Under the pieces are notes generated by a model. The model was given only the letters and a program-made list of their open reading frames with translations, was not told the DNA's origin and made no database searches. Shown one piece after another: positions 10,705-42,825 of a stretch of DNA of 42,825 bases. Made by a program: the position numbers and the translations under genes. Numbering within the stretch: position 1 is the stretch's first letter; every line of letters starts with the position of its first letter. This DNA comes from a virus: IMG/VR virus record IMGVR_UViG_3300045988_031260. The stretch is one strand, 5' to 3'.

Positions 10705-10718
10705 GAAGCGAGGGCGGA

Positions 10719-10910: not shown

Positions 10911-10912
10911 AC

Positions 10913-11788: not shown

Positions 11789-12092
11789 ATACATCAAGAG
11801 AGCGGATGCGATGGAGGCGATCCGCAAGTGGTGCGGGGACTGTGGGAGCGCGATCGAGGCGGTGTTAAGTGTGCCTGCGGCCAGAGGATGGGAGCCGGAC
11901 GGTGCCACGAATCTGCCCGCCGCTGATGTTGCCCAGGTGGTGCATGGTGAATGGTTGCTGCGTCACGAAGGGCGCGGACATTACTGGGAGTGTTCAGTCT
12001 GTCACGAAAACCCGTGTATTTATGTGACAAAACACACGAAATTCTGCCCCAACTGCGGGGCGAAGATGGACGGTGATAGCGATGAAAGTTAA
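11781..12092 (+). CDS. Zinc-ribbon hypothetical protein, module A copy (paralog of 16174-16446)
   Basis: Shared IKRADA.EAIRKWCGDCGS.IEA and FCPNCG..MDGDSDES ends. Confidence 0.7.
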   Translation: MAEYIKRADAMEAIRKWCGDCGSAIEAVLSVPAARGWEPDGATNLPAADVAQVVHGEWLLRHEGRGHYWECSVCHENPCIYVTKHTKFCPNCGAKMDGDSDES

Positions 12093-12219
12093 CGGGAGGC
12101 CGCTGTCCAATAACCCTAAACAGGCTTACATGCCGGACAAGCTGCACGGCGCGCAAGGCACGATGGGTAACGTGGCGATGGTGCCGAAGGACGAGTGCGG
12201 CGTGGTGTTTGGAGGTTGA
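12082..12219 (+). pseudogene. Truncated 45-aa paralog of 16436-16720
   Basis: MKVNGRPLSNNPKQAY...GNVAMV matches the first ~35 aa of the 94-aa paralog, then diverges and stops 3 nt before the MTase ATG. Confidence 0.6.
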
Positions 12220-15180: not shown

Positions 15181-15358
15181 CGACCGCACGTTTATGGGCG
15201 CAATGGCTGACGCGATCGCTGAAAAGCCGACGCGGGAGGGGCTTATTGCGATGCTGCGCGAATACGCGGAGTGGGCCGAGGCGAATATCTATGAAGTTCC
15301 GATTATGCTGCCGGATGACTTGCGGGCGGCGGCGGACATGCTGGAGAAGGGGGAATAA
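15167..15358 (+). CDS. Small hypothetical protein, module B copy
   Basis: Paralog of 10719-10910. Confidence 0.7.
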   Translation: MGLTDDRTFMGAMADAIAEKPTREGLIAMLREYAEWAEANIYEVPIMLPDDLRAAADMLEKGE

Positions 15359-15360
15359 AC

Positions 15361-15720
15361 ATGGATGCGGTGAAGTTTTTGAGCGAAGCGAAGCGGATGT
15401 GCAGCAATGCAGGGCCTTGCAGCACATGCGATGCGAACGAATTTTGCGGCTTTACGCCGGAGTTCCCGAGCGATTTTGGGGCAGTCGATCAAATGCAGAA
15501 GATGGTAAAACTCGTGGAGAAGTGGGCGGAGGAGCATCCGGGCAAGACGAGGCAGAGCGACTTCTTGAAGCAGTGGCCTAACGCCAAAATGAACCCGTTC
15601 ACCGGAACTGTTGACGTCCCGCCTTGCTCTCTTGATAAAAGCCTTTTGGATGAATGTCGTGAGCATGTGAGCAACTGTAACGACTGCCGCCGCAAGTATT
15701 GGCTGAAGGAGGTGGAGTGA
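15361..15720 (+). CDS. Cys-rich hypothetical protein, module B copy
   Basis: Paralog of 10913-11278. Confidence 0.7.
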   Translation: MDAVKFLSEAKRMCSNAGPCSTCDANEFCGFTPEFPSDFGAVDQMQKMVKLVEKWAEEHPGKTRQSDFLKQWPNAKMNPFTGTVDVPPCSLDKSLLDECREHVSNCNDCRRKYWLKEVE

Positions 15721-15968
15721 TGAACGACATCACGAAACAGCCGTATGCGGCATGGCTGGAAGAATCGCTGCAGGTCATCGCGGGGCTTGATCCCGTGTGC
15801 CTGTGCATCGCCGCAACATCGCCCGACGGCGACGTCTTTACGGGGTACTATGGGGCAGACGCAACGGACAAGGCCGTGTTTGCACACCACATCCAGAGCG
15901 ACGTGACGATGGATATTATCCGGGCAAATATCGACGAGATCAAGGGTATGCTGGGGGAGGCGGAATGA
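15720..15968 (+). CDS. Hypothetical protein (82 aa)
   Basis: ATG 15720 overlaps the upstream TGA, GGAGGTGGAG RBS. Confidence 0.6.
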   Translation: MNDITKQPYAAWLEESLQVIAGLDPVCLCIAATSPDGDVFTGYYGADATDKAVFAHHIQSDVTMDIIRANIDEIKGMLGEAE

Positions 15969-16177
15969 TGGATCGGCAGAAGGTTTATCGGCAGGCGCGG
16001 GACGTGGCAAAGGTGGTGCGCTGGAAGTGGAAGGTCTACCGGTATGCAACGGGAGAGATCGATCTGGTGTGCCCGTTTTGCTGCGCGCTGAACGCGCACG
16101 AAGATCTGCGGGAATTTGATCTGCGCGACTGGCATTATTGCCGGAGGTGCGGCACGAGACTGGAGGGAATCGTATGA
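15965..16177 (+). CDS. Zinc-ribbon protein whose first 13 codons match the MazG-like gene of module A
   Basis: MMDRQKVYRQARDV matches MMDRQEVYRQARDV at 11275-11568, then an unrelated CPFC...CRRCG sequence follows. Confidence 0.6.
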   Translation: MMDRQKVYRQARDVAKVVRWKWKVYRYATGEIDLVCPFCCALNAHEDLREFDLRDWHYCRRCGTRLEGIV

Positions 16178-16446
16178 TGGACGAACACATCAAGAGAGCG
16201 GACGCGCTGGAGGCGATCCGCAAGTGGTGCGGGGACTGTGGGAGCGGAATAGAGGCTATTTTAGCTGTTCCCACCGCCGATGTGGCTCCGGTGATGCATG
16301 GGCGGTGGATTGATGATCATGATTATCTCAAATGCCCGGAGTGCGGCGTGATGGTGAAGCGAGACTTTACATTTTTCAATGTTGGGGATTGGAACTATTG
16401 CCCCAACTGTGGGGTGGAAATGGACGGTGACAGCGATGAAAGTTAA
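16174..16446 (+). CDS. Zinc-ribbon hypothetical protein, module B copy
   Basis: Paralog of 11781-12092. Confidence 0.7.
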   Translation: MMDEHIKRADALEAIRKWCGDCGSGIEAILAVPTADVAPVMHGRWIDDHDYLKCPECGVMVKRDFTFFNVGDWNYCPNCGVEMDGDSDES

Positions 16447-16720
16447 CGGGAGACCGCTGCCCAATAACCCGAAACAGGCTTACATACTGGGCAAGTTGCA
16501 CGGCACGCAAGATACTATGGGCAACGTGGCGATGGTGCTGCTTGACAAGTGCGGTTGGCACATCAAAGAGCAGACGGCAGATGTGCACGATACCATGTCG
16601 ATCAGTTATCTGTACGAGTGCATTGTAGCACTTGCGGAAGAGATCAACGATGGCAGGATTAAGCGCAAGGACATAAAACAGGTGCTCGCAGAGGAGCATA
16701 ATGTAGCGTTCGGGGATTAG
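16436..16720 (+). CDS. Hypothetical protein (94 aa), full-length version of 12082-12219
   Basis: MKVNGRPLPNNPKQAY... start overlaps the upstream gene end. Confidence 0.65.
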   Translation: MKVNGRPLPNNPKQAYILGKLHGTQDTMGNVAMVLLDKCGWHIKEQTADVHDTMSISYLYECIVALAEEINDGRIKRKDIKQVLAEEHNVAFGD

Positions 16721-17428: not shown

Positions 17429-17521
17429 GCAGGTGTAGCTCAGTCGGTAGAGCTTTATCGCACGAAGGGATATGCGATTGAATGCCCTTGGTCGCTGGTT
17501 CGAGTCCAGCCGCCTGCGCCA
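17429..17521 (+). tRNA. tRNA-like element with canonical acceptor, D and T arms and encoded CCA, but a non-canonical 40-nt central region (isotype undetermined)
   Basis: Acceptor GCAGGTG/CGCCTGC, D-arm GCTC-AGTCGGTA-GAGC, T-arm GCTGG-TTCGAGT-CCAGC and GCCA end. The region 17454-17493 does not fold as a 5-bp/7-nt anticodon arm. Confidence 0.6.
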
Positions 17522-21018: not shown

Positions 21019-21265
21019 TATAAGATATACAATAATGTTATTGTGACATTGTGCATTATGCCCATTGCGGTATACCTGTGTGGGACAAGTGGGGCAAGCT
21101 TCTGCGGCTCTCGATCTCCGGCGGGAATGACCGGGGGCGGGGGATATGCGGCGTCAGCCGGGGGCGGGGTAAGCCCCAAAAATCCCGCAAAAAATAAAAA
21201 GCCATTTTTGCCCCATGTTGTAAAATCCGGCAAAAACAAAAGGACTATTTTGGGCATAAAACATA

Positions 21266-21294
21266 TTGACACAAATTATGCTGTGTGCTACACT
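21266..21294 (+). promoter_or_regulatory. Promoter of the serine recombinase gene
   Basis: TTGACA, a 17-nt spacer ending TGc, then TACACT. Confidence 0.6.
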
Positions 21295-21327
21295 ACCCTT
21301 ACAAGATGCAGGAAGGGAGCGATGCAC

Positions 21328-21915
21328 ATGAAAGTCGGATATATCCGGGTGTCCACGGAGGAGCAGAACACAATCCGCCAAGAGGTAATTATGCAAGACC
21401 TTGGAGTTGAGCGTGTCTACATTGACAAGGCCAGCGGGAAAAGCCGTACAGGCAGGCCGCAGCTGGAGGCAATGATGGATTTCGTCCGAGAGGGCGATGT
21501 GGTCATTGTTGAGAGCATCAGCCGGTTTGCGAGAAGCACGAGGGACTTGTTGACGCTGGTAGAACAGCTTACAGACAAAGGTGTGGGTTTTGTATCGCAG
21601 AAGGAATCCATTGACACGAACACGCCACAGGGCAAGTTCATGCTTACGGTGTTTGGCGCAATGGCGGAGCTGGAACGGGAGCAGACCTTACAGCGGCAGA
21701 GAGAAGGAATTGCGGCTGCAAAAGCGGCTGGGAAGTACAAAGGCCGTCAGCCGATAGCAATCAGCGATGATCTGCTTAAAACGGTGCATGAGCAGTGGTA
21801 CAAGAACGAAATTACCACGGCCTATGCGGTTAAGCGGCTGGGTGTAAGCCGGAACACCTTTTACCGCCGGATGTGGGACTACGAGGATTCCGCAGGGATT
21901 CCGAGACGGCGCTGA
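21328..21915 (+). CDS. Small serine recombinase (resolvase/invertase family) with C-terminal HTH
   Basis: MKVGYIRVSTEEQ catalytic-serine motif, VIVESISRFARS, FGAMAELEREQ and C-terminal AVKRLGVSRNTFYRR. Confidence 0.92.
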   Translation: MKVGYIRVSTEEQNTIRQEVIMQDLGVERVYIDKASGKSRTGRPQLEAMMDFVREGDVVIVESISRFARSTRDLLTLVEQLTDKGVGFVSQKESIDTNTPQGKFMLTVFGAMAELEREQTLQRQREGIAAAKAAGKYKGRQPIAISDDLLKTVHEQWYKNEITTAYAVKRLGVSRNTFYRRMWDYEDSAGIPRRR

Positions 21916-22689: not shown

Positions 22690-22725
22690 ATGGACTACCG
22701 ATTATTCGGCAGTCCATTTTTTATT
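22690..22725 (+). terminator. Intrinsic terminator 13 nt upstream of the terL start
   Basis: 11-bp stem with one mismatch, ATGGACTACCG/CGGCAGTCCAT, followed by TTTTTATT. Confidence 0.75.
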
Positions 22726-22737
22726 GCAGGAGGACGA

Positions 22738-24390
22738 ATGGATTATCGGAAGATTGCGGAAAGCATCAAAAACCGCATAGAGAAAACGCATGACCGAGAA
22801 GCCTACAAGGATTTGCTGGCGTTGTGTATTGGGTACGAAGCGGAGGATTTTGCTGCGGCGCACCAGTTAAATTCAGAAGTCCGAAAGATGACATCCGAAG
22901 CGTTGCGTAACGGAAACCCGAAAGACGCGGAGCATTTCTACACGCTGCACAAGCAAGCTATGCTGTTTGACGCACCGCATGATTTCGATACCTTCCTGCT
23001 GTATGTGGAGATGGACAGAAAGCCGGAGAAGCGGTTTTATGCTCCACGCAGGCGGTATCTAAGACCTATTGTGCAGGGGTATCAAGATGTCCTTGACGGC
23101 AAGTTAAGGTTGCTGACCATTTCCTTGCCGAAAAGAGCCGGGAAAAGCCAGCTGGGGATAAATTTCATCAACATGATGTCCGGCAGAAACCCGGATAAAT
23201 CGTCCCTTATGGAAGGCACAGGCGATGACCTTGTGCGGAGCTTCTACAACGGATGTTTGGAGTATCTGCAAACGCCCAACGAGTATTTATTCTACGATGT
23301 GTTTCCGGATGCTCCCTTGGTGCAGACCAACGCAGACACGAAAATCATCAATCTGCGTTCAAAATCTCGATTCCCTACGGTCATGTGCCGGTCGATTGAC
23401 GCACGGCAGGTGGGTTTGTCGGAGGCAACCAATGTCCTGTACTTGGATGACTGCGTGGAGGGCAGAGAGGAAGCGAAAAACCGTCAACGGCTGGATGATA
23501 AGTGGGAAGTAATTTCCGGCGATATTTTAGGCCGTGCCATAGAGGGTACACCTATTGTGGCCACCGGGACGAGATACTCCCTATATGACCCCATAGGGCA
23601 TTTACAGGAAGAAGCACAAAAAGGCGGCTGGGCATGGAAAGCCATTGAAATCCCCGCCCTTGACCCAATTACAGACGAAAGCAATTATGAGTACGAGCGA
23701 GAGGGGAAAAAGGTTTTTACCACCGCTTATTTCCGTGAGCAAAGGGAGCTTCTGAGCGCGGAACAGTTTGAAAGCGAATTTCAGCAGCAGCCCTTTGAAG
23801 CAAAGGGGCTGCTTTTCAATAAGTCGGAGCTGAACTATTTCTTTGAACTGCCGGTAGATCGTGACCCGGATGCAATCATTGCCGTGGCAGACACCGCAGA
23901 AAGCGGAAAAGATAGCACGGCCATGCCTGTTGCGGCCTTATATGGAGAGGAAGTCTACATTGTGGATGTGGTGTACGATGATTCTCCCGCAGAGGTCACA
24001 AAGCCGGAATGCGCAAGGTGCCTGATTGATAACAAGGTGGGAGACGCACTGTTTGAATCCAATAACGCCGGTATGTATTTTGCGAGAGATGTTGCAGAAA
24101 TCGTCAAAAACGCCGGATTTAATACCAGCATACGGACAAAAAGGACGATTTCCAATAAGCAGACACGAATTGAGTTCGCATCGGATGGAATCAAGAAGAA
24201 TTTTTACTTCAAGCATCCGTCCACATACAAGCGAGGGTGTCAATACTGGGGATTCATGCAGGAAGTGACCACCTATGTAAGAAGCGGCAAAGTGGCGCAC
24301 GATGACGCGCCTGATTCCTTGTCGTTGCTGGAGAACGAAATCCGAAACCGCATCAGCGGCAAGATTGAGATATTCAAAAGACCGTTTTAA
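22738..24390 (+). CDS. terL: Terminase large subunit
   Basis: Walker A-like LPKRAGKS, Walker B VLYLDD, and nuclease-domain motifs AVADTAESGKDS and HDDAPDSL. Confidence 0.92.
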   Translation: MDYRKIAESIKNRIEKTHDREAYKDLLALCIGYEAEDFAAAHQLNSEVRKMTSEALRNGNPKDAEHFYTLHKQAMLFDAPHDFDTFLLYVEMDRKPEKRFYAPRRRYLRPIVQGYQDVLDGKLRLLTISLPKRAGKSQLGINFINMMSGRNPDKSSLMEGTGDDLVRSFYNGCLEYLQTPNEYLFYDVFPDAPLVQTNADTKIINLRSKSRFPTVMCRSIDARQVGLSEATNVLYLDDCVEGREEAKNRQRLDDKWEVISGDILGRAIEGTPIVATGTRYSLYDPIGHLQEEAQKGGWAWKAIEIPALDPITDESNYEYEREGKKVFTTAYFREQRELLSAEQFESEFQQQPFEAKGLLFNKSELNYFFELPVDRDPDAIIAVADTAESGKDSTAMPVAALYGEEVYIVDVVYDDSPAEVTKPECARCLIDNKVGDALFESNNAGMYFARDVAEIVKNAGFNTSIRTKRTISNKQTRIEFASDGIKKNFYFKHPSTYKRGCQYWGFMQEVTTYVRSGKVAHDDAPDSLSLLENEIRNRISGKIEIFKRPF

Positions 24391-24393
24391 GGG

Positions 24394-25851
24394 GTGACGC
24401 TATTGAGACAAATGTTTGGCAGAAAGGTCATTTATTCGGATGCTACCGAGGTAAACGAGGGTAATATTGCAAATATCCTGCAAAAGGCAATGGTTGTCCA
24501 CGCCGCCAACCGGACGGACATGGAATATTTATACAGGTACTATAAAGGCGACCAGCCTATCCTTGCCAGAGTAAAGGATGTGCGCCCGGAGATTAACAAC
24601 AAGATTGTCGAAAACCGGGCAAACGAGATCGTGTCCTTCAAGGTCGGCTACCTGATGGGAGAGCCTGTCCAGTATGTCAGCAGAATAGCCGATGAAAAAG
24701 CGGCTGAAATGGTCACAAAGCTGAACGATTATGTTTTGTCCGAGGACAAACCGGCAAAGGATAAGGAGCTGGCGGACTGGTTTCACATATGCGGCACGGC
24801 CTATCGCATGGTCATGCCGGACACCCCGGAAGATGAGGACGAAGCCCCGTTTGAGATTTATACCCTTGACCCACGGTTTTGCTTTGTGGTGTATTCCGTG
24901 CAGTTGGGTAATCCTCCCCTTATGGCGGTCAAGTATGTCAAGATGGAGGATGGGACAGTCGTTTTCAGCTGTTATACGAAAGACCATTTCTATGAAGTGA
25001 CCGACACATGGCGGATCGTTCGCAGTGAGCCGCAGATTTTGGGTATTCCCATCATCGAGTACCCGGCAAACCGTGCAAGACTGGGTGCATTTGAAATCGT
25101 CCTGAATCTGCTGGATGCAATCAACAATGTGGAATCCAACCGCATGGACGGCGTGGAGCAGTTCGTGCAGTCCTTGCTTCTGTTCCACAATGTGCGTATT
25201 TCCGAGGAACAGTATTCCGCATTGCGGCAAGACGGCGCAATTCAGTTTGAGGACATTGACCCGCAGAAGAAAGCGGAGATCAAGAACCTTGTTACGGAGC
25301 TGAATCAAACGCAGACACAGACCCTTGCAGACAACCTGTATAACACGGTGCTGACAATCTGCGGGATGCCCAACAGAAACGGCGGTTCTTCCACCTCTGA
25401 CACCGGCTCTGCAGTCATCATGCGTGACGGATGGTCTGCGGCAGAAGCAAGGGCAAAAGATTCCGAGTTGGTATTCAAGCGTTCCGAAAAAGAGTTTCTG
25501 AAAGTGCTTTTGCGGATTTGCAATGACTTGAGCGATTTGTCTTTGAAACTGTCCGCAATCGAGATCAGATTTACCCGTCGGAATTATGAGAACATTTCCG
25601 AAAAGGCGAATGTGCTGGTAACCATGCTGGGCAACGGCAAAATTGCGCCGCAGCTTGCATTTACACATTGCGGTCTATTCAGCGACCCGCAGCTTGCGTA
25701 CAAGATGAGCATGGAATATCTTGAGGAAAACGGAGGAAACAATGGAATTAACGCTGGAGATGGTACGGACGATCAACGAAATCCTCAAGAACCGCAACCA
25801 AGCGGAAGTGAAAGTGGAGAACGGGAAGATCGTAGTAATCGAAGTGCGTAG
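24394..25851 (+). CDS. Portal protein (SPP1 gp6-like)
   Basis: YYKGDQPIL...EINNKIVENRANEIVSFKVGYLMGEPVQY. Directly follows terL. Start uncertain among GTG 24394, TTG 24403 and ATG 24412. Confidence 0.88.
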   Translation: MTLLRQMFGRKVIYSDATEVNEGNIANILQKAMVVHAANRTDMEYLYRYYKGDQPILARVKDVRPEINNKIVENRANEIVSFKVGYLMGEPVQYVSRIADEKAAEMVTKLNDYVLSEDKPAKDKELADWFHICGTAYRMVMPDTPEDEDEAPFEIYTLDPRFCFVVYSVQLGNPPLMAVKYVKMEDGTVVFSCYTKDHFYEVTDTWRIVRSEPQILGIPIIEYPANRARLGAFEIVLNLLDAINNVESNRMDGVEQFVQSLLLFHNVRISEEQYSALRQDGAIQFEDIDPQKKAEIKNLVTELNQTQTQTLADNLYNTVLTICGMPNRNGGSSTSDTGSAVIMRDGWSAAEARAKDSELVFKRSEKEFLKVLLRICNDLSDLSLKLSAIEIRFTRRNYENISEKANVLVTMLGNGKIAPQLAFTHCGLFSDPQLAYKMSMEYLEENGGNNGINAGDGTDDQRNPQEPQPSGSESGEREDRSNRSA

Positions 25852-26646: not shown

Positions 26647-27672
26647 ATGGCAGATACTTTTGCTACCAGCTTCGGAGTGCTGAATTACTCCGGTATGCTC
26701 TTCAACAAGGGCAACACCCGCACCCCTCTGTCTTCCATCATCGGAAGCCGGGCAAAAACCACCAACCATGTCGAGTTCGTCACAGGGCAGGAATACAGCT
26801 CTGCCGGCGGCACACAGCCCGCCATCAGCGAGACCGCGTCCCTGACTGCTCCTGATGCTTCCGTGGTGACCCGTACACAGAAAACCAATGTTACGCAGAT
26901 TTTTCAGGAGACCGTGGGCGTTTCCTACGCCAAGATGTCCAATATGGGCACTCTGTCCGGCGTAAATATCGAGAATCAGCAGGCCAACCCCATCAATGAA
27001 CTGGATTTCCAGGTGGGCGCAAAGATCCAGAAGATCGCCCGGGATATGGAGTTCACCTTCATCCAGGGCGCATACAACAAGGCCGCAGACGATTCCAAGA
27101 TCAACAAGACCCGTGGCCTGACCACCGCCATTACCACCAATGTTACCGCTATGGCATCCAAGCCCCTGGGCCTGTGGGATGTAGCCGACATGGTGAAGAA
27201 GATTTACGGAGCCAACGCTCCAACCAACGGTCTGGCACTGTGGTGCGATGCCGTGACCATGTTCCAGATCAATGCGGATGCCGTGCAGAACGGTCTTACT
27301 GTAGTTCCTGTTGCTCGTGAGATCAACGGCATTGCGCTGTCCAGCGTAATCACCCCTCTTGGAGTTGTTTACCTGTACCTTGGCGAGTGTTTGCCCGCCG
27401 GTACGGCCCTTCTGCTGAATCTGGATGTTATCGCCCCTGTGTACCAGCCCGTTCCCGGCAAGGGCAATTTCTTCCTGGAGCAGCTGTCCAAGACCGGAGC
27501 TGGCGAGAAGTGGCAGCTGTTCGGTCAGGTCGGTCTTGACCACGGGCCCGAATGGTATCACGGCAAGTTCACCGGTATTTCCACCGATTTCACTGCGCCT
27601 ACTTATAGCCGCAGCGTGTTTATTGCCAATGACGCAAGCAATCCTGTAAACACCAAGGCTGTTACCGGCTGA
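26647..27672 (+). CDS. Major capsid protein
   Basis: 341 aa, position after the scaffold gene, strong RBS. Confidence 0.8.
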   Translation: MADTFATSFGVLNYSGMLFNKGNTRTPLSSIIGSRAKTTNHVEFVTGQEYSSAGGTQPAISETASLTAPDASVVTRTQKTNVTQIFQETVGVSYAKMSNMGTLSGVNIENQQANPINELDFQVGAKIQKIARDMEFTFIQGAYNKAADDSKINKTRGLTTAITTNVTAMASKPLGLWDVADMVKKIYGANAPTNGLALWCDAVTMFQINADAVQNGLTVVPVAREINGIALSSVITPLGVVYLYLGECLPAGTALLLNLDVIAPVYQPVPGKGNFFLEQLSKTGAGEKWQLFGQVGLDHGPEWYHGKFTGISTDFTAPTYSRSVFIANDASNPVNTKAVTG

Positions 27673-30059: not shown

Positions 30060-30502
30060 GCGAACCGCCGCCCGATAAAGAGGGGGGCAATACCCCCCTC
30101 TATGCTTACACGGAAAAGTTCTATGAGGTTTTCCCTTATTACCTTGCAATAGGCATGACCTACGAGCAGTTCTGGGAAATGGATTGCGAGTTGGTCAAGT
30201 ACTACCGCAAGGCAGCGAAAATCAAGCAGGACTTGGACAACCAGCAAGCATGGCTACAGGGTGCGTATTTCTATGAAGCCTTGGCGGATGTATCGCCTAT
30301 TCTTCATGCGTTTGCAAAGAAAGGTACAAAGCCTATTCCGTATCGAGATTCCCCCTATCAGGTGGGTGAAAGCTATAATCCTGCGGAGAAAAAAGTGAAA
30401 GAGCAGAAGAATGATAGCCGTGCAAAAGCAATCATGGAAATGTTCATGATTGCAAATAACAAGAAATTCGAGCCGGGAGGTGAAAAGCATGGACAATCTT
30501 GA
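29733..30502 (+). CDS. Tail assembly chaperone G-T fusion made by a -1 programmed frameshift at 30029-30035
   Basis: The -1 frame is open from 30029 through the ORF listed as 30155-30502. Confidence 0.65.
30029..30035 (+). promoter_or_regulatory. Slippery heptamer G_GGA_AAC
   Basis: In the correct X_XXY_YYZ phase relative to 29733-30059. Lambda G/GT uses GGGAAAG. Confidence 0.65.
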
Positions 30503-33413
30503 AATTCGCGGACTTGAATTTCAAATCAAAGAGAACAGCGACAGCGCCGTTGCGTCTTTGGGACGGCTTGAAAAGGCGCTTTCCTCCCTAAAGTCGGCCA
30601 CTTCCGGCGGAGCGTCCGGCGTAAGAACTGCTGCAAAGCAGATTGCGGCGCTCAATACAGCGCTGTCTGGGGCCGGTGCAGTTGGGCAAAAACTTAAATC
30701 TATCGCTGCCGGTCTACAGGCAATATCCGATGTCGGAACCGTTAAGATTCCGAAATCTCTTGGAAACAATCTGCAGTCGCTTGGGACTGCGTTGTCTGGA
30801 ATTTCCGATGGAGATATAGACAGGCTCTACAATGTCGCAGATGCTTTGCGCCCGTTATCCGAGCTGGAAAGTGCGCACATGCGTTCGTACATTAACCAGC
30901 TCAGCGCTTTCCCTGATGTGGTGCGCGAACTCCGCGCCGCAGACATCGACGAGTTTTCAAACCAAATGACCCGGCTTGCAAATGCGCTGAGACCGTTTGC
31001 CACGGAAATGCAACATGTAGCCGATGGATTTAGTGCCATGCCGTCTCGAATTCAGCGGCTCATAACAACGACCGAGAGGTACAACAACACGGTAAACAGA
31101 GGATCCACCCAAACGAGCCGATTTGGGATTTCCCTCAAAAGCATAAAAACGGCAGGGGTTATGGCCGGAATTCGTATGATACGCCAAGAAATCAGCAAGG
31201 CAATCACTGAATCCAACGCATACCAAGAGGATTTGAACCTGTTTACCGTGGCTATGGGGCAATACGCAAAAGAAGCCCAAGAGTATGCGGAAAATGTTGG
31301 AGAAATAATGGGAATTGACCCCGCAAAATGGATGCGGAATCAGGGCGTATTTAACACTTTGCTGTCCGGATTCGGCTCTGTCGCAGACCGTTCTTACCTT
31401 ATGAGTAAGAACCTTACACAGCTCGGCTATGACATTTCCTCGTTCTTCAACACCTCCGTTGAAGATGCTATGCAAAAGCTGCAATCCGGCGTTTCTGGCG
31501 AATTGGAACCGTTGCGTAGATTGGGCTATGACCTGTCGCAAGCCAAACTGGAACAAACCGCATTGACGCTGGGAATCGAAAAGTCTGTTTCTGCCATGAC
31601 GCAGGCAGAAAAGGCGGAGCTGCGTTACTACGCCATTATGACACAGGTAACAACGGCGCAGGGCGACATGGCGAGAACCTTAGACGCGCCAGCTAACCAG
31701 TTGCGCATTTTCCAAGCGCAGTTGACACAGGCATCAAGAGCAATCGGTAATATCTTTATCCCCATTCTGCAAAAAATCCTACCCATTGCAATCGCTGTTC
31801 TTCGTGTTGTGCGTGAGGTTGCTGATGCCATTGCAAAACTGTTTAACTTCAAGCTCACGGACATTGACTATTCCGGCGTGGGAAATCTGGCCAGCGGCGC
31901 AGGGGATGCCGCAACAGGGCTTGAAGATGCCACCAGTGCAGCAAAGGAGCTAAAGAAGTCCGTTATGGGCTTTGATGAGCTTAACATTCTAAACGGCAAC
32001 ACTGCGTCTGGGTCTGGTTCTGCAGGTGTGTCCGGCGGCAGCGGTTTTGACTTTGAATTGCCTGAGTATGATTTTCTTGGCGATGCTGTAAGTAAGCAGA
32101 TTGATGAAGTCACGCAGAAGCTCAAAAATGCGCTCCCGTGGATTCTTGCCATTGGCGCCGGATTAGCGGCGTGGAAACTTGGCCCAAAACTCGGCCTTGA
32201 TTTGCAGAAAACCATTGGCTTGGCTGTCGGTATTTTTGGCGCACTTACGCTGGTGCAAAACATTCTCGATTCAATCGTAAACGGCGTTACAGAGGAGAAC
32301 ATGAACGGCATGATTTTCGGCATGACGCTTGCCATAACCGGTCTGTACGTCGCTCTTGGGCCGGTAGCCGGAGGAATTACAGCTATTGTTTCCGGGCTTG
32401 CTGTGCTGGCTGTTGCGTTTATTGACGCAGAGAAAAACGGATGGAATTTCCAGAATCAAATGCTGGCAATCGCAGGAATCCTTGCGACCGGTGTGGGTAT
32501 CGGCATTTTGACTGGATCCTTTATCCCGGCTCTTATCGGGATGATTGCGGCTCTGATTCTTAGCGTTACTACGGCTACCGGGCACGGAGAAGAGCTTATC
32601 AGTGGCGTAAAAGAAACACTCAAGGGGTTTATCGATTTCTTCGCCGGTATCTTTACGGGAGACACTGAGCGTACTGCCGCTGGCATTGCCGGGATTTTCG
32701 GCGGGCTGAAAGTCGCGATTGGATCTGTGATCGATGGCATAAGGGACTTTCTTAACGGGTTGTTGGACTGGATCGACCAGAAAACAAATGGAAAGCTTAA
32801 ACCAATTATTACCGGGATCAAGGCCATTGTAACCGCCGTTTTTGGCAACATCAAGCAGACCATCGGGAATGTAATTGACGAAATTAAGACGATTTTCTCC
32901 GGACTAATCAAGTTTATTTCCGGCGTTTTTTCTGGGGATTTTGATAAGGCCTGGGAGGGGGTCAAGGACATTTTCAAGGGCATCTGGAACACCATGATTG
33001 ATCTGCTTAACGGTGCAATCAATATCATCATCAAGGGTCTTAACTGGCTCATCAAGCAGATGAACAAGATTAGTTTCAATGTACCTTCATGGGTGCCGTT
33101 TGTAGGTGGAAAATCTATCGGAGTAAACATTTCCTATATCAGCGAGAATGTGCTCCCACGGCTCGCAAAGGGCGCAGTTATCCCCGCAAACGACGAGTTT
33201 CTTGCCGTGCTTGGTGACCAGTCCCACGGAAATAACATTGAAGCGCCGGAAGGACTTATCCGGAAAATTGTCCGCGAGGAATCCGGCGGTTCTGGTGAAG
33301 TTCATGTGACCATTGTCCTCGACAGCGTGACAGGGAAGAAACTGTTCGAGACAGTAGTCAGAGAAAACAACGCCGTTGTTCGTGCGACCGGGGCAAGCCC
33401 TCTTGTTACATAA
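30489..33413 (+). CDS. Tape measure protein
   Basis: 974 aa, helical N-terminal half, multiple hydrophobic segments. GGAGGTGAAAAGC RBS. Confidence 0.9.
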   Translation: MDNLEIRGLEFQIKENSDSAVASLGRLEKALSSLKSATSGGASGVRTAAKQIAALNTALSGAGAVGQKLKSIAAGLQAISDVGTVKIPKSLGNNLQSLGTALSGISDGDIDRLYNVADALRPLSELESAHMRSYINQLSAFPDVVRELRAADIDEFSNQMTRLANALRPFATEMQHVADGFSAMPSRIQRLITTTERYNNTVNRGSTQTSRFGISLKSIKTAGVMAGIRMIRQEISKAITESNAYQEDLNLFTVAMGQYAKEAQEYAENVGEIMGIDPAKWMRNQGVFNTLLSGFGSVADRSYLMSKNLTQLGYDISSFFNTSVEDAMQKLQSGVSGELEPLRRLGYDLSQAKLEQTALTLGIEKSVSAMTQAEKAELRYYAIMTQVTTAQGDMARTLDAPANQLRIFQAQLTQASRAIGNIFIPILQKILPIAIAVLRVVREVADAIAKLFNFKLTDIDYSGVGNLASGAGDAATGLEDATSAAKELKKSVMGFDELNILNGNTASGSGSAGVSGGSGFDFELPEYDFLGDAVSKQIDEVTQKLKNALPWILAIGAGLAAWKLGPKLGLDLQKTIGLAVGIFGALTLVQNILDSIVNGVTEENMNGMIFGMTLAITGLYVALGPVAGGITAIVSGLAVLAVAFIDAEKNGWNFQNQMLAIAGILATGVGIGILTGSFIPALIGMIAALILSVTTATGHGEELISGVKETLKGFIDFFAGIFTGDTERTAAGIAGIFGGLKVAIGSVIDGIRDFLNGLLDWIDQKTNGKLKPIITGIKAIVTAVFGNIKQTIGNVIDEIKTIFSGLIKFISGVFSGDFDKAWEGVKDIFKGIWNTMIDLLNGAINIIIKGLNWLIKQMNKISFNVPSWVPFVGGKSIGVNISYISENVLPRLAKGAVIPANDEFLAVLGDQSHGNNIEAPEGLIRKIVREESGGSGEVHVTIVLDSVTGKKLFETVVRENNAVVRATGASPLVT

Positions 33414-38773: not shown

Positions 38774-38866
38774 TGAGGACTAGACCCGAGCTGAAACATG
38801 CCAACCACACATCCCAACGCCCTGACGGGCTTAATTTACATGCGCAATGCGCAGGAAGGAGAAATT

Positions 38867-39322
38867 ATGAAAGAAAACGCAATCAAGGCCGTGCTTGCGG
38901 CAGCGCTGGGGGCGCTGGCATCCTACGGCACGCAGCTCATCGTCCCGGCGATCATCCTCGTCGCGGTGATGGTGCTGGACTACATCACCGGCATGGCCAA
39001 GGCGTGGCAGGCCGGAGAGCTGAGCAGCCGCGTCGGCATCGGCGGTATCCTGAAAAAGGTCGGCTATCTGGTGATCGTCGCGGTGGCCTGCGTGCTGGAC
39101 TGGCTGGTGCGGTATGGTGCTGACCAGATGGGGCTGGACTGGAAACTGGATTTCCTGATCGCTTCGATCGTGGTGATCTGGCTGGTGATTAATGAGCTGA
39201 TTAGTATTTTGGAGAATGTGGCCGCGCTGGGCGCGCCGGTGCCGGGATTTTTGCAGAGCCTGATTAAGCGGCTGAAGGTGTCGGTGGAGGACAAGATTCC
39301 GGCGGGCAACGAGGAGGACTAA
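38867..39322 (+). CDS. Holin (multi-TM, phage_holin_4-like)
   Basis: Several hydrophobic helices, ...VINELISILEN... motif, directly upstream of the endolysin. Confidence 0.85.
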   Translation: MKENAIKAVLAAALGALASYGTQLIVPAIILVAVMVLDYITGMAKAWQAGELSSRVGIGGILKKVGYLVIVAVACVLDWLVRYGADQMGLDWKLDFLIASIVVIWLVINELISILENVAALGAPVPGFLQSLIKRLKVSVEDKIPAGNEED

Positions 39323-39323: not shown

Positions 39324-40031
39324 ATGAACATCATCGAAAAAACCTACAAATGGGCAAAGCCGCTCAGCAAGCGGGGTACGACGGATCTGCTGATCCTGCA
39401 TCACTCCGGTACGACCACCTGCACGCCGGACGGCGTCCACAGCTGCCACGTCGGCAATGGCTGGGCGGGTATCGGCTACCACTATCTGGTGCGCAAGGAC
39501 GGCACGATCTATCGCGGACGCCCCGAAGATACGGTAGGCGCGCACGCTTACGGCGCGAACAGTCACAGCATCGGCGTATGCTTTGAAGGCAATTATCAGG
39601 TGGAGCCGACCATGCCCGCCGCGCAGCTGGCCGCCGGACAGGCTCTGGTAGCCGATATCAAGCGGCGCTGGGGCATCACCAAGGTGATCGGACACAAGGA
39701 CGTCGCCGGATCTACCACGGACTGCCCGGGCAAGTATTTCCCGCTTGAGGCCATCGTCTCCGGGACGTCGGAGACTCAGGACAACAACACAACAAAGGAG
39801 GACATTATCATGGTAGCAACTCAGATGATCGGAAGCGGCGACCGTGGAAACGCGGTACGCAGCATGCAGGGCGCGCTCATTGCGCAGGGCTACAATTGCG
39901 GCAGCTACGGCGCGGACGGCATCTGCGGCGCGGCAACCGTCGCGGCCATTAAGGCTTGTCAGGCGGCTAACGGCCTGACGGCGGACGGCATCTGCGGCGT
40001 TAAGACGTGGGGCGCACTGCTCAAAAAGTAA
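39324..40031 (+). CDS. Endolysin: N-acetylmuramoyl-L-alanine amidase with a C-terminal peptidoglycan-binding domain
   Basis: LILHHSG...GWAGIGYHYLV...GAHAYGANSHSIGVCFEGN...GHKDV..TDCPG, then a C-terminal GDRGNAVRSMQGAL...GLTADGICGVKTW. Confidence 0.92.
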   Translation: MNIIEKTYKWAKPLSKRGTTDLLILHHSGTTTCTPDGVHSCHVGNGWAGIGYHYLVRKDGTIYRGRPEDTVGAHAYGANSHSIGVCFEGNYQVEPTMPAAQLAAGQALVADIKRRWGITKVIGHKDVAGSTTDCPGKYFPLEAIVSGTSETQDNNTTKEDIIMVATQMIGSGDRGNAVRSMQGALIAQGYNCGSYGADGICGAATVAAIKACQAANGLTADGICGVKTWGALLKK

Positions 40032-40123: not shown

Positions 40124-40369
40124 ATGAACAGCAACCATAAGGCCGTAAGAAATCTCTTGTCAAATCTGCCACCGAAACGAGCTATCGCCCTCGTGGAATC
40201 GTTTTTACTGCCAAATACCGAGGAGATGATAGTCATAGATTGCGACGTGCGCCGAAAAAGCTGCGTTCAGGTTGCTATGGATCAGAATATGTCCGTGGAA
40301 ACCGTAAAACGGTACAGATGCAGAGCATACCACAAAATTTCACAGGAGCTATTTGCCACCCTGCCTTAA
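40124..40369 (+). CDS. Small sigma-70 region-4-like / RinA-like HTH protein
   Basis: VQVAMDQNMSVETVKRYRCRAYHKI. Start uncertain (ATG 40043 or 40124, no clear RBS). Confidence 0.5.
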   Translation: MNSNHKAVRNLLSNLPPKRAIALVESFLLPNTEEMIVIDCDVRRKSCVQVAMDQNMSVETVKRYRCRAYHKISQELFATLP

Positions 40370-40393
40370 TTGGCGGGGTGGCTTTCTTTTTTT
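40355..40393 (+). terminator. Intrinsic terminator
   Basis: 11-bp stem GCCACCCTGCC/GGCGGGGTGGC, loop TTAATT, then TTTCTTTTTTT. Confidence 0.85.
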
Positions 40394-40402
40394 GACACTT
40401 TT

Positions 40403-40429
40403 CAGGCACTTTCTGGTGCCTGTTTTTTT
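40403..40429 (+). terminator. Second tandem intrinsic terminator
   Basis: CAGGCAC/GTGCCTG stem followed by TTTTTTT. Confidence 0.75.
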
Positions 40430-40459
40430 GTATCATAAAGGCAGGAAGAAGGTGGCAAA

Positions 40460-40597
40460 ATGTATGACCGGCTTATCGCCTGCGGTTACACGGAGCAAAT
40501 GGCGGAAAATATCCTGAAACTATTCACCGATCCGGAAGAATTGCGGATATATGTATATTTTGCTGAACTGTTTCGTAAAGAAAGGACGGTATGTTGA
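40460..40597 (+). CDS. Small hypothetical protein (45 aa), first gene of the terminal accessory operon
   Basis: GGAAGAAGGTGG RBS. Below the ORF-track size cutoff. Confidence 0.5.
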   Translation: MYDRLIACGYTEQMAENILKLFTDPEELRIYVYFAELFRKERTVC

Positions 40598-40989
40598 TGG
40601 CATTTAATCCTTACTATCAGAATCCGTATCAGCCGATGGGGTATAACGGCCAATACGGGAATTATGCCCCGCAGAGCGCCGCAGGAGCGCCGCAAGCGTT
40701 CGGGTGTCAAATTACAAGGGTAAACGGCAGAAACGGCGCAGAGGCGTTCAGGATGGCCCCTAACAGCTCTATTCTGCTGATGGATGAGAACGACCCTATT
40801 GTATGGATGAAGCAGACGGACGGCGCAGGATATGCAACGGTAACACCTTATACGGTTTCTCCGTATCAGGCCGCCCCGCCTGTGGACGTAAGTAGTCTGG
40901 AAGAACGGGTAAAGAGATTGGAGGACACAATCAATGGCAAATCCAATGATGCAAATGCTGATGGGAAGCGGAAGCCGAAAGCCGAATAA
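40591..40989 (+). CDS. Hypothetical protein with a Tyr/Pro/Gln/Asn-rich N-terminus
   Basis: AFNPYYQNPYQPMGYNGQYGNYAPQ, then a globular part and a coiled C-terminus. Confidence 0.65.
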   Translation: MLMAFNPYYQNPYQPMGYNGQYGNYAPQSAAGAPQAFGCQITRVNGRNGAEAFRMAPNSSILLMDENDPIVWMKQTDGAGYATVTPYTVSPYQAAPPVDVSSLEERVKRLEDTINGKSNDANADGKRKPKAE

Positions 40990-41152
40990 CCCGCTTGCGA
41001 TGTTGTCCGAGTTTCGGAGGTTTGCTACCAACATGACCCCGCAGAAAGCACAGCAAGAAATTAAACGGTTGCTGGCCTCCGGGCAAATGAGCAAGGAGCA
41101 GTTTGCTGATTTGCAGAAACAAGCAAAGGACTTCATGCAATTTTTGAAATAA
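40934..41152 (+). CDS. Small helical hypothetical protein (72 aa)
   Basis: GGAGGA RBS. Overlaps the upstream gene by 56 nt in another frame. Confidence 0.6.
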   Translation: MANPMMQMLMGSGSRKPNNPLAMLSEFRRFATNMTPQKAQQEIKRLLASGQMSKEQFADLQKQAKDFMQFLK

Positions 41153-41200
41153 GCCGGGTCGACACGGTTTATTTATAAATTTTTGAAAGGAGTTTACAAC

Positions 41201-41812
41201 ATGGATAACGGTATGTCCCTTAGCGATATTGCCGCTGTGACACGGGGAGCGAATGATGAGAACGGCTGGGGGTCCGGATGGTTCCTTATCGTAGTTCTGT
41301 TCCTGTTCATGTTCGGCTTCGGCGGAAATGGCTGGAATCGTCAGGGCGAGTTCGGGGAGTATGCCACCGCTGCAAGCCAGCAGGAGATCTTATTCGGCCA
41401 GCAGTTCGGCCAGGTCAACGACCGTCTGACCAACATCGGCAACGGCATCTGCAATCTTGGTTACGAGATGCAGGGCAACATCGGTCAGTTGGGCAAGGAG
41501 ATGGCTTTGGCGCAGAATGGCACCAACATGACCATCATGCAGACCGGCAACAGCATCCAGAGCCAGATGGCGCAGTGCTGCTGCGACACCAAGCGAGCCA
41601 TTGACGGCGTAAACGCCAACATCGACGCGAAGTTTGCGGCTCTGGAGAAGTCCCAGCTTGAGCAGCGCATTGCGGAGCAGTCTGCCCGCATTGCCAGCCT
41701 TGAGATGGATAACCGGATGTATGGCGTAGTCCGCTATCCCAACGGCTACACCTACAATGCCGGTAATTCCCCCTTCTGCGGCTGCAATAGCTGCTGCGGC
41801 GCAAACATCTGA
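41201..41812 (+). CDS. Membrane protein with a Gly/aromatic TM segment, Q/N-rich coiled region and Cys clusters
   Basis: GWGSGWFLIVVLFLFMFGFGGNGW, QCCCD and C-terminal FCGCNSCCGANI. AAAGGAG RBS. Confidence 0.7.
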   Translation: MDNGMSLSDIAAVTRGANDENGWGSGWFLIVVLFLFMFGFGGNGWNRQGEFGEYATAASQQEILFGQQFGQVNDRLTNIGNGICNLGYEMQGNIGQLGKEMALAQNGTNMTIMQTGNSIQSQMAQCCCDTKRAIDGVNANIDAKFAALEKSQLEQRIAEQSARIASLEMDNRMYGVVRYPNGYTYNAGNSPFCGCNSCCGANI

Positions 41813-41844
41813 CAAAAGCGAAAGGCCCCTCTTGGCCGGGTTAT

Positions 41845-41876
41845 GGGCGGGGCTGGTGTCCCGCCCTCTTTATTTT
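41845..41876 (+). terminator. Intra-operon intrinsic terminator / attenuator
   Basis: GGGCGGGG/TCCCGCCC stem followed by TCTTTATTTT. Confidence 0.7.
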
Positions 41877-41892
41877 GAAAGGAGATTTTATA

Positions 41893-42297
41893 ATGTCTTG
41901 CAAATCCGCTATTTACACTGCCATGCAGACCCCTACGGAAGTTACCGTAAATGGCGTTATCCCTCTGGGAAGTCTGATCCGCCGCTACGGCTGCGATATT
42001 TCCCTGAACGGGAATGCTGTAAACATCGTTGGCAAGGGCTATTATGATGTGGATGTTTCCGTCACCGCTGCGCCCTCCGCTGCCGGAACTGTCACCGCCA
42101 CGCTCATCAAGGACGGCGTTGTTGTCCCCGGCGCGACTGCATCCGCCACCGCTTCTGCGGCTGGCGATTCTGCAGTGCTGGCGTTCCCCGCGCTTGTGCG
42201 GCAGGCTTGCTGCGCTTCTGGCTCTGCTCTGTCTCTGGTTCTGACCGGCGCAGCATCCACCGTCAACAATGTCGCCATGCGTGTACAGCGCATTTGA
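41893..42297 (+). CDS. C1q/TNF-like jelly-roll protein resembling the BclA C-terminal (exosporium) domain
   Basis: The pattern NIVGKGYYDVDVSVTA...TATLIKDGVVVPGA...LSLVLTGAASTVNNVAMRVQRI parallels the BclA C-terminal domain. AAAGGAG RBS. Confidence 0.55.
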   Translation: MSCKSAIYTAMQTPTEVTVNGVIPLGSLIRRYGCDISLNGNAVNIVGKGYYDVDVSVTAAPSAAGTVTATLIKDGVVVPGATASATASAAGDSAVLAFPALVRQACCASGSALSLVLTGAASTVNNVAMRVQRI

Positions 42298-42305
42298 GGT
42301 ACGCC

Positions 42306-42614
42306 ATGAAACTGATCGAAAAGCTCTCTGAAATGGTCGAGGAGGAAATCGGCGATGCAAAGAAGTACGCAAAGTGCGCGCTGAAGTACAAAGACGCCGA
42401 CCCCACCCTTGCAAAGCTGTTTTATGACCTTTCCACGGAGGAAATGCGCCACATGGATTTGCTACACGGGGAAGTAATGCGGCAGATCGAGCAGTACCGA
42501 AAAACAAAAGGAGAGCCGCCCGAATCCATGCAGGCTGTTTATGATTACCTGCACGAGCGGCAGATCGAAGAAGCGAGAGAGGTTAAAACCTATCAGGCAA
42601 TGTATCGCGGTTGA
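42306..42614 (+). CDS. Small four-helix-bundle, ferritin/rubrerythrin-like protein
   Basis: EEEIGDAKKY and STEEMRHMDLLH (ExxH) motifs. GAGGT RBS. Confidence 0.5.
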   Translation: MKLIEKLSEMVEEEIGDAKKYAKCALKYKDADPTLAKLFYDLSTEEMRHMDLLHGEVMRQIEQYRKTKGEPPESMQAVYDYLHERQIEEAREVKTYQAMYRG

Positions 42615-42726: not shown

Positions 42727-42825
42727 ATCGAATTAATATCACAATATACTGTATTTTGCAAAGCGGCTTACGCCTTTTAAGCAGGGTGTCTGGGGTTCGA
42801 ATCCCCAACGGGGCACCAAAAAAGC
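42727..42825. repeat. Right copy of the 99-bp terminal direct repeat
   Basis: Identical to 1-99. True repeat length cannot be judged because the window ends here. Confidence 0.95.
42772..42818 (+). other. Second copy of the tRNA-Lys(UUU) 3' fragment, inside the terminal repeat
   Basis: Same sequence as 46-92. Confidence 0.8.

Follow-up and report, generated by a model that had tools for sequence, protein, structure and literature searches.

Streptococcal and staphylococcal prophages carry toxin genes as conversion genes 3′ of their lysis genes, and in phages of Gram-negative hosts the gene just after the endolysin gene encodes Rz, a protein with an N-terminal anchor, a coiled-coil ectodomain and conserved Cys residues. 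In the exosporium of the Bacillus cereus group, a jelly-roll domain of the C1q/TNF type (Pfam BclA_C, PF18573) forms the C-terminal domain (CTD) of BclA and recurs in BxpB and ExsFA/ExsF, and the endospore appendage F-ENA has been described as having a CC motif and a C1q-headed tip fibrilla (PMC12357932). The locus considered here recalls each of these systems in part. It occupies positions 40124–42614 of IMG/VR virus record IMGVR_UViG_3300045988_031260, a stretch of 42,825 nucleotides (nt) that is referred to as the window, and consists of six tightly packed open reading frames (ORFs), g2 to g7, which follow a helix-turn-helix (HTH) gene, g1. A first-pass annotation had listed these elements, all of which were found at their places, and had interpreted them as a prophage module for the spore or cell surface; that interpretation, taken as a whole, is partly supported. 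We propose, at a probability of roughly 40%, that temperate phages infecting gut Clostridia of the Oscillospiraceae and Lachnospiraceae lineages carry this locus as an autonomous mobile accessory cassette, whose products form a “split BclA-like” fibre or coat anchored in a membrane and which is part of neither the virion nor the lysis machinery.

The jelly-roll protein and the products around it

The product of g6 (41893–42297, + strand; 134 amino acids (aa)) is modelled by AlphaFold2 (AF2) as a jelly-roll over its whole length, with a predicted local distance difference test score (pLDDT) of 82 and a predicted template modelling score (pTM) of 0.77. In a Foldseek search of the PDB the BclA CTD is matched with E=3.7e-9 to 3.9e-8 and template modelling (TM) scores of 0.73–0.75, and BxpB (TM 0.84), ExsFA/ExsF (TM up to 0.85) and F-BclA are also top-ranked; C1q, cerebellin and the TNF ligands rank only after these Bacillus exosporium proteins. 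A profile built from 17 divergent g6 homologues finds BclA in the PDB by sequence (E=4.6e-4). The Pfam BclA_C model matches g6 itself with E=2.6e-4 and 21.3 bits, below the gathering threshold of 38 bits. Among the 17 divergent members it matches 12 at E<0.01, the lowest value being 3.6e-6, and for many close homologues a PF18573 match is precomputed. For BxpB/ExsFA, the structural comparison gives TM 0.77–0.85 and the sequence profile is weak, with E=0.13–0.27. The earlier recognition of a C1q/TNF-type jelly-roll like the CTD of BclA is thus borne out by structure and by family profile, and we read g6 as a distant member of the BclA_C superfamily. No collagen-like GXX repeats are apparent from a reading of the 134 residues, and no exosporium-targeting motif of the LIGPTLPPIPP type is present, the N-terminus being MSCKSAIYTAMQ.

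The conserved Cys residues of g6 are Cys3, Cys34 and Cys106–107, the last in a CC or CxC loop. Some homologues bear Cys-rich N-terminal extensions (L020 5909–6379, L015 6890–7324, L013 6688–7134 and L023 5046–5501; L numbers denote individual loci), for example MSCNSCNSCNSSCGSCNRRNTC, which recalls the Cys-rich N-terminal connectors of endospore appendage subunits. Variant heads with Cys-rich N-termini are seen as MSCNSCNSCNSSCGSC in L020 and as MACKNICQLC in a protein, g6alt, that substitutes for g6 in some phages (L001 6699–7109, L004 6874–7314, L030 1849–2253 and L032 6743–7129). This Cys-rich protein of 128–146 aa has a further conserved Cys cluster, with NRCCAQ in two of the four. No relation between g6alt and g6 was found by hhalign, and g6alt has no match in Pfam or the PDB. 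A Pfam match to DUF3992 or DUF4183 was not obtained at E<=1 for g6, g6alt or the homologue in L003.

The neighbouring gene, g5 (41201–41812, + strand), encodes a 203-aa member of phrog_16490. Hydropathy gives a single hydrophobic segment, residues 24–42, flanked by Gly and Trp, and Cys residues are at positions 84, 126–128, 193, 195, 198 and 199. Across the family alignment an N-terminal motif, SLSDIAAVT, is conserved; a Gln/Asn-rich coiled coil varies in length through indels, a CC(C) within it being invariant; and the C-terminal Cys cluster, GVVRYPNGYTYNAG-SPFCGC..CC, is conserved. Cys makes up 3.9% of g5 and 3.0% of g6, versus about 1% in structural proteins. The hydrophobic segment, the Q/N-rich coil and the Cys clusters attributed earlier to this protein are therefore all in place. 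Its description as YjcZ-like did not hold, since no YjcZ or tiny-transmembrane model matches at E<=1 in Pfam or NCBIfam, and the protein has 203 residues and a large coiled coil.

Other candidate identities for g5 were set aside. The family has no match in Pfam, NCBIfam, the PDB or PADLOC, and weak matches to ZorA (E=0.007–0.06) and AhlC are low-complexity coiled-coil noise. A double-glycine leader, suggested by a resemblance to SL[SA]DIAAVTGG, was dropped because the GG is not conserved. A spanin reading finds no lipoprotein partner among the products, and the hosts, as Clostridia, are monoderm. A review also describes Dysosmobacter welbionis as monoderm. No signal peptide or lipobox was found in any cassette product. 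No domain fusion of g5 was found among 1.84 billion representatives, the best 150 of its 619 relatives being 50–272 aa long.

The single membrane protein, the location at a prophage end and the dedicated regulator could also suggest superinfection exclusion or anti-phage defence, with g5 blocking entry or acting as an abortive-infection effector, and the weak similarity to ZorA at the level of the coiled coil would agree with this. However, PADLOC returned no significant match for any product, the ZorA (E=0.059) and AbiEi (E=0.01, for a variant protein) values being noise, and known systems for exclusion or defence do not resemble a set of five to seven structural-looking proteins that includes neither enzyme nor nuclease. 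We regard such a function as quite improbable, and as less likely than the late-lytic role considered below.

The last gene, g7 (42306–42614, + strand; 102 aa), had been called ferritin/rubrerythrin-like on account of its length of about 100 aa and an EEMRH motif, and Pfam and profile–PDB matches agree. Pfam Rubrerythrin matches it with E=9e-4 and 20.0 bits, just under the threshold of 22.8 bits, and matches 5 of 12 family members. The family profile finds helices A–B of the Mycobacterium tuberculosis ferritin BfrB (E=1.7e-4). The metal ligands E14, Y21 and E47-x-x-H50 of helices A/B are retained at canonical spacing, are conserved in 10 of 11 homologues and are lost together in L015. The match spans helix A to about helix C (positions 4–103 of the 137 in the Pfam model), where the protein ends at residue 102; the second ExxH, of helices C/D, is absent from g7, which does not reach a full four-helix bundle.

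The first three genes of the group are small. The 45-aa peptide listed in the first pass is present as g2 (40460–40597, + strand), which has a Shine-Dalgarno site and is translationally coupled to g3 by the overlap of its stop with the g3 start. It has no family match in Pfam, PHROGs or NCBIfam, and a 46-aa ORF lies at the same position in the L117 group. The g3 protein (40597–40989, + strand; 130 aa; phrog_21718) does have the Tyr/Pro/Gln/Asn-rich N-terminus ascribed to it, residues 1–33 holding six Tyr, five Pro, five Gln and four Asn; a small alpha/beta domain (38–88), a short coiled-coil helix (98–112) and a charged tail follow. Its AF2 model has pLDDT of about 88 in the domain and below 50 for residues 1–32, which are read as disordered, and Foldseek gave nothing better than E=0.16. 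The 72-aa protein, again read as helical, is g4 (40934–41152, + strand), a Met/Gln-rich product that matches phrog_22984 with E=2.7e-13. Its start overlaps the 3′ end of g3 by 56 nt (40934–40989) in a different frame; an overlap of about 53–56 nt is also present in L002, L017 and L117, and one of only 4 nt in L003 and L004. Searches of the PDB with g3, g4 and g5, as single sequences or family profiles, gave nothing significant. PHROGs labels the families of these three genes “unknown function”, and relatives of the cassette proteins are named in databases as “hypothetical” or, by automated annotation, “BclA protein” and “zipper dimerization domain”.

The resemblance to spore coat or exosporium components, claimed for the six products together, is demonstrable for g6 only, and the g6 fold is also frequent in phage fibre heads. 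An explanation built on this link is lysogenic conversion in the mother cell of a sporulating lysogen, with the products adding an exosporium- or coat-like layer or nap to the spore. This spore version, which we consider unlikely, is a special case of the favoured explanation. It draws on the best structural matches of g6, which are exclusively exosporium proteins, ahead of generic C1q/TNF folds; on the absence of signal peptides, as in mother-cell coat and exosporium proteins; and on the Cys- and Tyr-rich composition with a ferritin-fold partner, which parallels ExsY/CotY/CdeC and CotJC/CotF. Further points in its favour are that the carriers appear temperate and have Clostridia as hosts, and that the small stand-alone HTH protein recalls GerE. 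The promoter and host evidence that bears on it is given below.

Recurrence and mobility of the cassette

The split-fibre proposal concerns a unit that is widespread. A tblastn search of GenBank phages with g5 gave 11 records, of which 10 are unannotated human-faecal “Bacteriophage sp.” entries, and the same gene order was seen in the four GenBank phage records examined. When one genome of each species was scanned, 28 loci were found. Among these, the closest relatives are mostly in metagenome-assembled genomes (MAGs) labelled Oscillospiraceae, Clostridiales or Dysosmobacter, and the distant ones in Lachnospiraceae, Lachnospira and similar; a few bins are labelled Bacteroidaceae, archaeon or Eggerthellaceae. 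Relatives of g5 are on at least 574 IMG/VR contigs. Among clusters at 90% identity there are 3671 relatives, and among representatives at 50% identity there are 619.

About 120 loci were fetched, and in them the order HTH–g3–g4–g5–g6(–g7) recurs, in full HTH–(g2)–g3–(g4)–g5–g6/g6alt–(g7 or a longer g7L)–(small HExxH protein). Gene order is kept from 100% down to 26–40% identity. L019 and L025 retain only g5 and g6, with g7 in addition in L019, and g5–g6 can therefore be taken as the minimal core. The recurrence of the order is far above chance, so that this is not a chance cluster. A collection of unrelated neighbouring small ORFs or morons, forming no system, might be suspected because g2 is limited to close relatives and g7 and upstream genes are absent from some loci. 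Against this stand the order and adjacency of g3–g4–g5–g6, kept to 26–40% identity amid unrelated structural modules, and the conserved internal hairpin and upstream repeat architecture described below, which argue for one unit; the synteny data effectively refute that explanation.

Gene content varies at the 3′ end. In L117, an Oscillospiraceae-type locus, and likewise in L118–L121, there is an extra 69-aa ORF (11754–11963) in the g6–g7 gap and a 100-aa ORF (12264–12566) after g7, with no family match on record for either. Lachnospiraceae-type cassettes (L003 7274–8269, L004 7238–8377 and L028–L031) have a 210–242-aa protein in place of g7, with a Tyr/Arg/Pro-rich charged region (RYYDQYRYANGRFAPKGKGKRRGY...). 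They further encode a small HExxH protein whose DUF2268/SprT-like matches are weak.

Cassettes that are almost the same (g5 95% identical) have different lysis genes as neighbours: in the window, a phrog_199 holin (38798–39322) and a 235-aa amidase endolysin (39324–40031); in L033–35, a Dp-1-type holin with Amidase_2+CW_7; and in L117–121, a CHAP endolysin. The recombinase beside near-identical cassettes also differs, being either a tyrosine integrase or a large serine recombinase. Of the 88 loci with enough flank, 66 have a recombinase gene that starts on the opposite strand within 4.5 kb downstream (median 1.2 kb). In L003 (MT835516, a distant phage) the cassette has minor head proteins on one side and the scaffold and major head genes on the other; terminators at 5204 and 8600 enclose it, and the internal hairpin is retained at 6796. 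In L004 it is preceded by a weak match to a head-tail adaptor and by a gene that is XhlA-like (haemolysin). Both of these records encode a recombinase, as all carriers examined encode integrases or recombinases, from which they appear to be temperate. The genomes of g6 relatives in BFVD are labelled Sipho-, Myo- and Podoviridae. Because near-identical copies stand beside differing lysis genes and recombinases, and because of the head-gene site, we conclude that the cassette moves as a unit, independent of virion and lysis type.

In the window, no paralogue of a cassette protein is found elsewhere; g6, for instance, has no match among the tail-fibre genes. Factor-independent terminators flank the cassette (the upstream hairpins of the window, and both sides in L003), and its genomic context varies among related phages. 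Together, the mobility, the insulation, the varied virion types and the lack of a window paralogue match what is meant by a moron and speak against a role in the virion or in lysis. A virion-decoration or tail-tip reading was rejected on account of the independence from the virion module and the membrane protein in the cassette. The view taken in the first pass, of a compact accessory unit after the lysis genes and next to att, with its own regulator and flanking terminators, is upheld.

The att site needs some qualification. The first 99 nt of the window are repeated exactly at its end (1–99 = 42727–42825), which makes the window a phage contig that closes into a circle of 42,726 bp and has no host flanks. 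What lies beside the operon is an attP-like tRNA 3′ fragment on the + strand at 42787–42818 (= 61–92), recognised by reading a T-arm, GGTTCGAATCC, an acceptor end and CCA. It sits between g7 and the integrase gene (137–1276, − strand), and beyond it, across the circular junction, come a bidirectional terminator and then that gene. ARAGORN and Rfam do not call it as a tRNA, because it is a fragment only. Thus, the att-proximal position claimed for the operon stands, with att meaning an attP-like tRNA fragment in a circular phage contig.

Control elements, proposed assembly and rival readings

The HTH gene, g1 (40124–40369, + strand; 81 aa), matches Pfam Sigma70_r4_2 with E=1.3e-3, below the cut-off, and has NCBIfam sigma-70 C-terminal matches. 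HTH proteins of 65–116 aa lie directly 5′ of the cassette in most loci. In Pfam, 15 positional homologues of g1 give eight Sigma70_r4_2 matches (best E=1.1e-6), five to Sigma70_r4 and two to GerE. Since region 2 was not found in the g1-type proteins, their matches being restricted to C-terminal model positions, g1 is not a sigma factor. The earlier label “sigma-region-4/RinA-like” is right in its region-4 part; no RinA/ArpU match was found in Pfam, NCBIfam or PHROGs. We take g1 to be a stand-alone sigma-70 region-4/LuxR-type HTH protein, and likely the cassette-specific regulator.

The interval between g1 and g2 is densely organised, with all elements on the + strand. The two tandem terminators noted in the first pass are hairpins followed by T-runs. 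Hairpin 1 (40355–40392) has an 11-bp stem with nine G-C pairs and overlaps the g1 stop codon; hairpin 2 (40403–40429) has the stem CAGGCAC...GTGCCTG and a T7 run. Together, these fold better than shuffled sequence (z = -4.7), and Rfam gave only sub-threshold matches in the region, reflecting the terminator hairpins. A hairpin with T-run is conserved upstream across divergent loci, with differing stem sequences, and the layout of the spacer is conserved as well: hairpin and T-run, then a -10-like hexamer, then a Shine-Dalgarno site a few bases on. In the window the hexamer is TATCAT (40431–40436), directly 3′ of the T-run; the Shine-Dalgarno purine run starts 6 nt and the g2 ATG 23 nt 3′ of it. 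Comparable hexamers (TACCAT, TACAAT, TATGCT and GATAAT) lie at or near the same site in most loci. We infer that TATCAT is a putative promoter element of the cassette, although a generic sigma-70 promoter scan gave no full + strand match in the region.

Direct repeats phased at 11 nt are present in 38 of 48 distinct HTH–cassette intergenic regions. Seven-mer pairs number 165 at offset 11 and 48 at offset 22, whereas other offsets and shuffled sequences yield about 10; as the loci are related these counts are not a P-value, and the repeat units nonetheless differ between lineages. In the window the repeats span 40395–40413, as ACACTTTT (40395–40402) and GCACTTTC (40406–40413), 11 nt apart. Their unit is RCACTTT; they lie at about the -35 position, and the second copy overlaps the terminator-like hairpin 2. 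L009 has three tandem TGACCAAACGA units at 4049–4075, the third partial. The phased repeats are probably operator sites bound by g1, through which g1 would gate the cassette promoter; activation and repression cannot be told apart from sequence.

A further hairpin, G+C-rich with a T-rich tail, lies at 41845–41876 (+ strand), the hairpin proper spanning 41845–41866, with the g6 Shine-Dalgarno site directly 3′ of it. This is the terminator that the first pass had placed between the last two genes; it separates g5 from g6 and so precedes g6–g7. A hairpin with a T/A-rich tail is present in 67 of 76 distinct g5–g6 spacers, and at least five of the other nine have a hairpin that lacks the tail. The hairpin is also present in the distant L003. 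Stem sequences vary and T/A tails are often weak, which is more suggestive of a conserved attenuator, or of an element for RNA stability, than of a full terminator, and the hairpin probably attenuates g6–g7 expression.

We suggest that the cassette works as follows. The g1 protein would bind the 11-bp phased repeats over -35 and gate a promoter just 3′ of the upstream terminator(s). The resulting transcript would cover g(2)–g3–g4–g5, and the conserved hairpin would lower g6–g7 expression by attenuation. The g5 protein would be the stalk, held in the membrane by its N-terminal segment and extending as a coiled coil, whose length varies, to a terminal Cys cluster; g6, which has an N-terminal Cys as well as a CC loop, would form a C1q/TNF-fold trimer like those of the BclA/BxpB/ExsF type. 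Stalk and head, made as separate polypeptides, would be joined via their Cys residues, by disulfide or shared metal, and the split fibre would nucleate a coat-like layer on a face of the host membrane, with the Tyr-rich g3, the small g4 and the metal-binding, ferritin-like g7 as accessory or cross-linking parts. As there are no signal peptides, assembly would begin at the cytoplasmic face, and the forespore, or material exposed at lysis, are candidate sites. A structural assembly is the most economical reading because g5 and g6 are always adjacent, g5 is stalk-like and ends in Cys residues, and g6 is a trimer-forming head with an N-terminal Cys. A narrower version, in which a two-piece membrane-anchored BclA-like fibre, hardened through Cys, Tyr or metal chemistry with the help of g3 and g7, re-surfaces the spores of the lysogen or cell-derived material, we think doubtful.

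Several points weigh against the split fibre. Both flanks of the hydrophobic segment of g5 are acidic, which makes the topology of the protein ambiguous, and g6 has no export signal. Many g6 matches in BFVD are fibre proteins with the head at the C-terminus, the C1q fold being generic in phage fibre tips. Neither structural relatives of g3 nor annotated sequence relatives of g4 and g5 were detected, so that the roles given to these three proteins are guesses. If stalk and head occur 1:1 in a complex, an attenuator placed between their genes is unexpected. What the data show is the anatomy, conservation and mobility of the cassette, together with the fold of g6, the ligands of g7 and the phasing of the repeats; a g5–g6 complex, a function for g1, and when and where assembly takes place are inferred. 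Lastly, the position of g1 at the tail of the late/lysis operon fits late-lytic expression as well as conversion.

This last point makes a late-lytic role a serious rival, to which we nevertheless give limited credence. In such a scheme g1, made from the late/lysis transcript, turns the cassette on at the end of infection and the products act at or after lysis; possible roles are membrane remodelling, receptor masking on debris, or an oxidation-hardened protective or adhesive matrix round the released virions. If this were true, it would be a new class of post-lysis phage function. The gene g1 is co-oriented with and directly 3′ of the endolysin gene in Oscillospiraceae-type loci, or of a minor head gene in L003, with no canonical terminator between; small region-4-type phage proteins are usually activators; the cassette lies within or ends late gene blocks; and products that have no signal peptide would be released by lysis only. 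However, strong terminators shield the cassette from late transcription, its own promoter-like element is a moron signature, it is independent of lysis-gene and virion type, and the att-proximal end is typical of conversion genes.

The proposed fibre does not depend on the spore, and the control region and hosts speak to the spore version in particular. When the conserved upstream regions were read by eye, no convincing -10/-35 motif of the sigmaE/K/F/G type was seen and the -10 looked sigmaA-like. In L003 the cassette is within a head-gene block and not at att, the C1q fold is generic in phage fibres, and the features that define BclA beyond its CTD are absent. Such genes are unmentioned in the text of a survey on sporulation genes in gut phages. 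Some bins are labelled Lachnospira or Oribacterium, which are not known to sporulate. One MAG, labelled Dysosmobacter, has a full cassette on a contig of 202 kb, and the type species of this genus, D. welbionis, is described as non-spore-forming (PMC13599835). In view of the link through g6 only, the lack of a sporulation promoter, the Dysosmobacter copy and the head-gene site, the spore-remodelling prophage module of the first pass is kept as one live option and is not the demonstrated reading.

PHROG assignments show the window to be a complete temperate siphovirus-type genome. Large terminase (22690–24390), portal (24394–25851), major head protein (26647–27672) and tape measure (30450–33413) genes come in this order, and the tail proteins reach 37324. 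Four observations elsewhere in the genome are recorded here. In the early region, co-linear stretches of 300, 102 and 163 nt within about 1.5 kb (10710–12200) recur about 4.4 kb downstream (15158–16554) at 83–94% identity, which looks like a duplicated gene block. ARAGORN calls a tRNA-Val (CAC) at 17429–17521 that, at 93 nt, is unusually long for a tRNA. An ORF at 21043–21915, just 5′ of the terminase genes, matches an ad hoc serine-recombinase hidden Markov model with E=2.8e-15, and may encode a resolvase-/invertase-like protein or an HTH-bearing packaging protein. Finally, the endolysin gene holds an exact 19-nt direct repeat (39912–39930 and 39981–39999, 69 nt apart), in the C-terminal region (residues 154–234) that matches phrog_2649 and other endolysin families.

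Comparison with known systems

The cassette is not assignable to a known kind and is apparently undescribed. Full-text literature searches on prophages with exosporium or BclA, on sporulation genes of gut phages, on BclA_C and on F-ENA turned up no description of it; with the family and defence searches, they leave standing the earlier statement that no system of such composition has been described. The cassette is nevertheless common, in hundreds of gut-Clostridia phages, and its three core families (g3, g4 and g5) have no annotated relative. If a surface structure is indeed built, phages would drive the remodelling of spore or cell surfaces in anaerobes that rank among the most abundant of the human gut, a process that bears on host-to-host transmission, oxygen survival and immune recognition; re-surfacing, if true, would alter transmission, adhesion, or recognition, whether by other phages or by the immune system. 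The regulatory unit, with its region-4-only HTH protein, putative 11-bp phased operators and conserved internal attenuator, is compact and open to direct test.

In its position between endolysin and attP/int, its promoter-like element, its terminators and its mobility as a unit, the cassette resembles the lysogenic-conversion morons of Gram-positive prophages. Unlike morons that supply a single toxin or enzyme, it is a structural-looking set of five to seven genes with a dedicated HTH gene and no signal peptides, and it sometimes stands among head genes. The likeness of g5 to the i-spanin Rz (N-terminal anchor, coiled coil, conserved Cys, a gene near the endolysin gene) is a resemblance only; unlike Rz, g5 has no partner lipoprotein, and the cassette is shielded transcriptionally from the lysis genes, which in some phages lie far off. 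The g7 protein shares with ferritin, bacterioferritin and rubrerythrin the helices A–B and the Glu, Tyr and Glu-x-x-His ligands at canonical spacing, and differs from them in its length of about 100 aa, which covers the first ~100 of the 137 rubrerythrin positions with a single ExxH.

The comparison with spore structures centres on g6. Its jelly-roll is like the BclA CTD, BxpB and ExsFA/ExsF (Foldseek E of about 1e-9 to 1e-7, TM 0.73–0.85) and, as with BxpB and ExsFA, little is present beyond this domain. In contrast to BclA, it has no GXX repeats or targeting motif, is encoded by phages of Clostridia, always lies beside a membrane coiled-coil protein, and has conserved Cys residues that are not typical of BclA. 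Small beta-sandwich proteins, Cys-rich N-terminal peptides and CC motifs also recall Ena1A/B, L-BclA and ExsY/CotY; in the endospore appendages such features link the subunits covalently to one another, and polymerisation would be putative here. Unlike the Ena subunits, the cassette proteins have no Pfam DUF3992 or DUF4183 match, and g6alt has no detectable relatives.

Finally, the same C1q/TNF fold caps the fibres of phages and giant viruses, such as collagen-like tail fibres and PRD1-type spikes, and a trimeric stalk with a head is what we propose for g5 and g6. Whereas those heads are fused to their stalk and attached to the virion, g6 is a separate head of 134 aa, its putative stalk, g5, is membrane-anchored, and the pair is independent of virion type. 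If the split fibre is real, it would be a new example of a C1q-fold fibre, built from separate stalk and head proteins.

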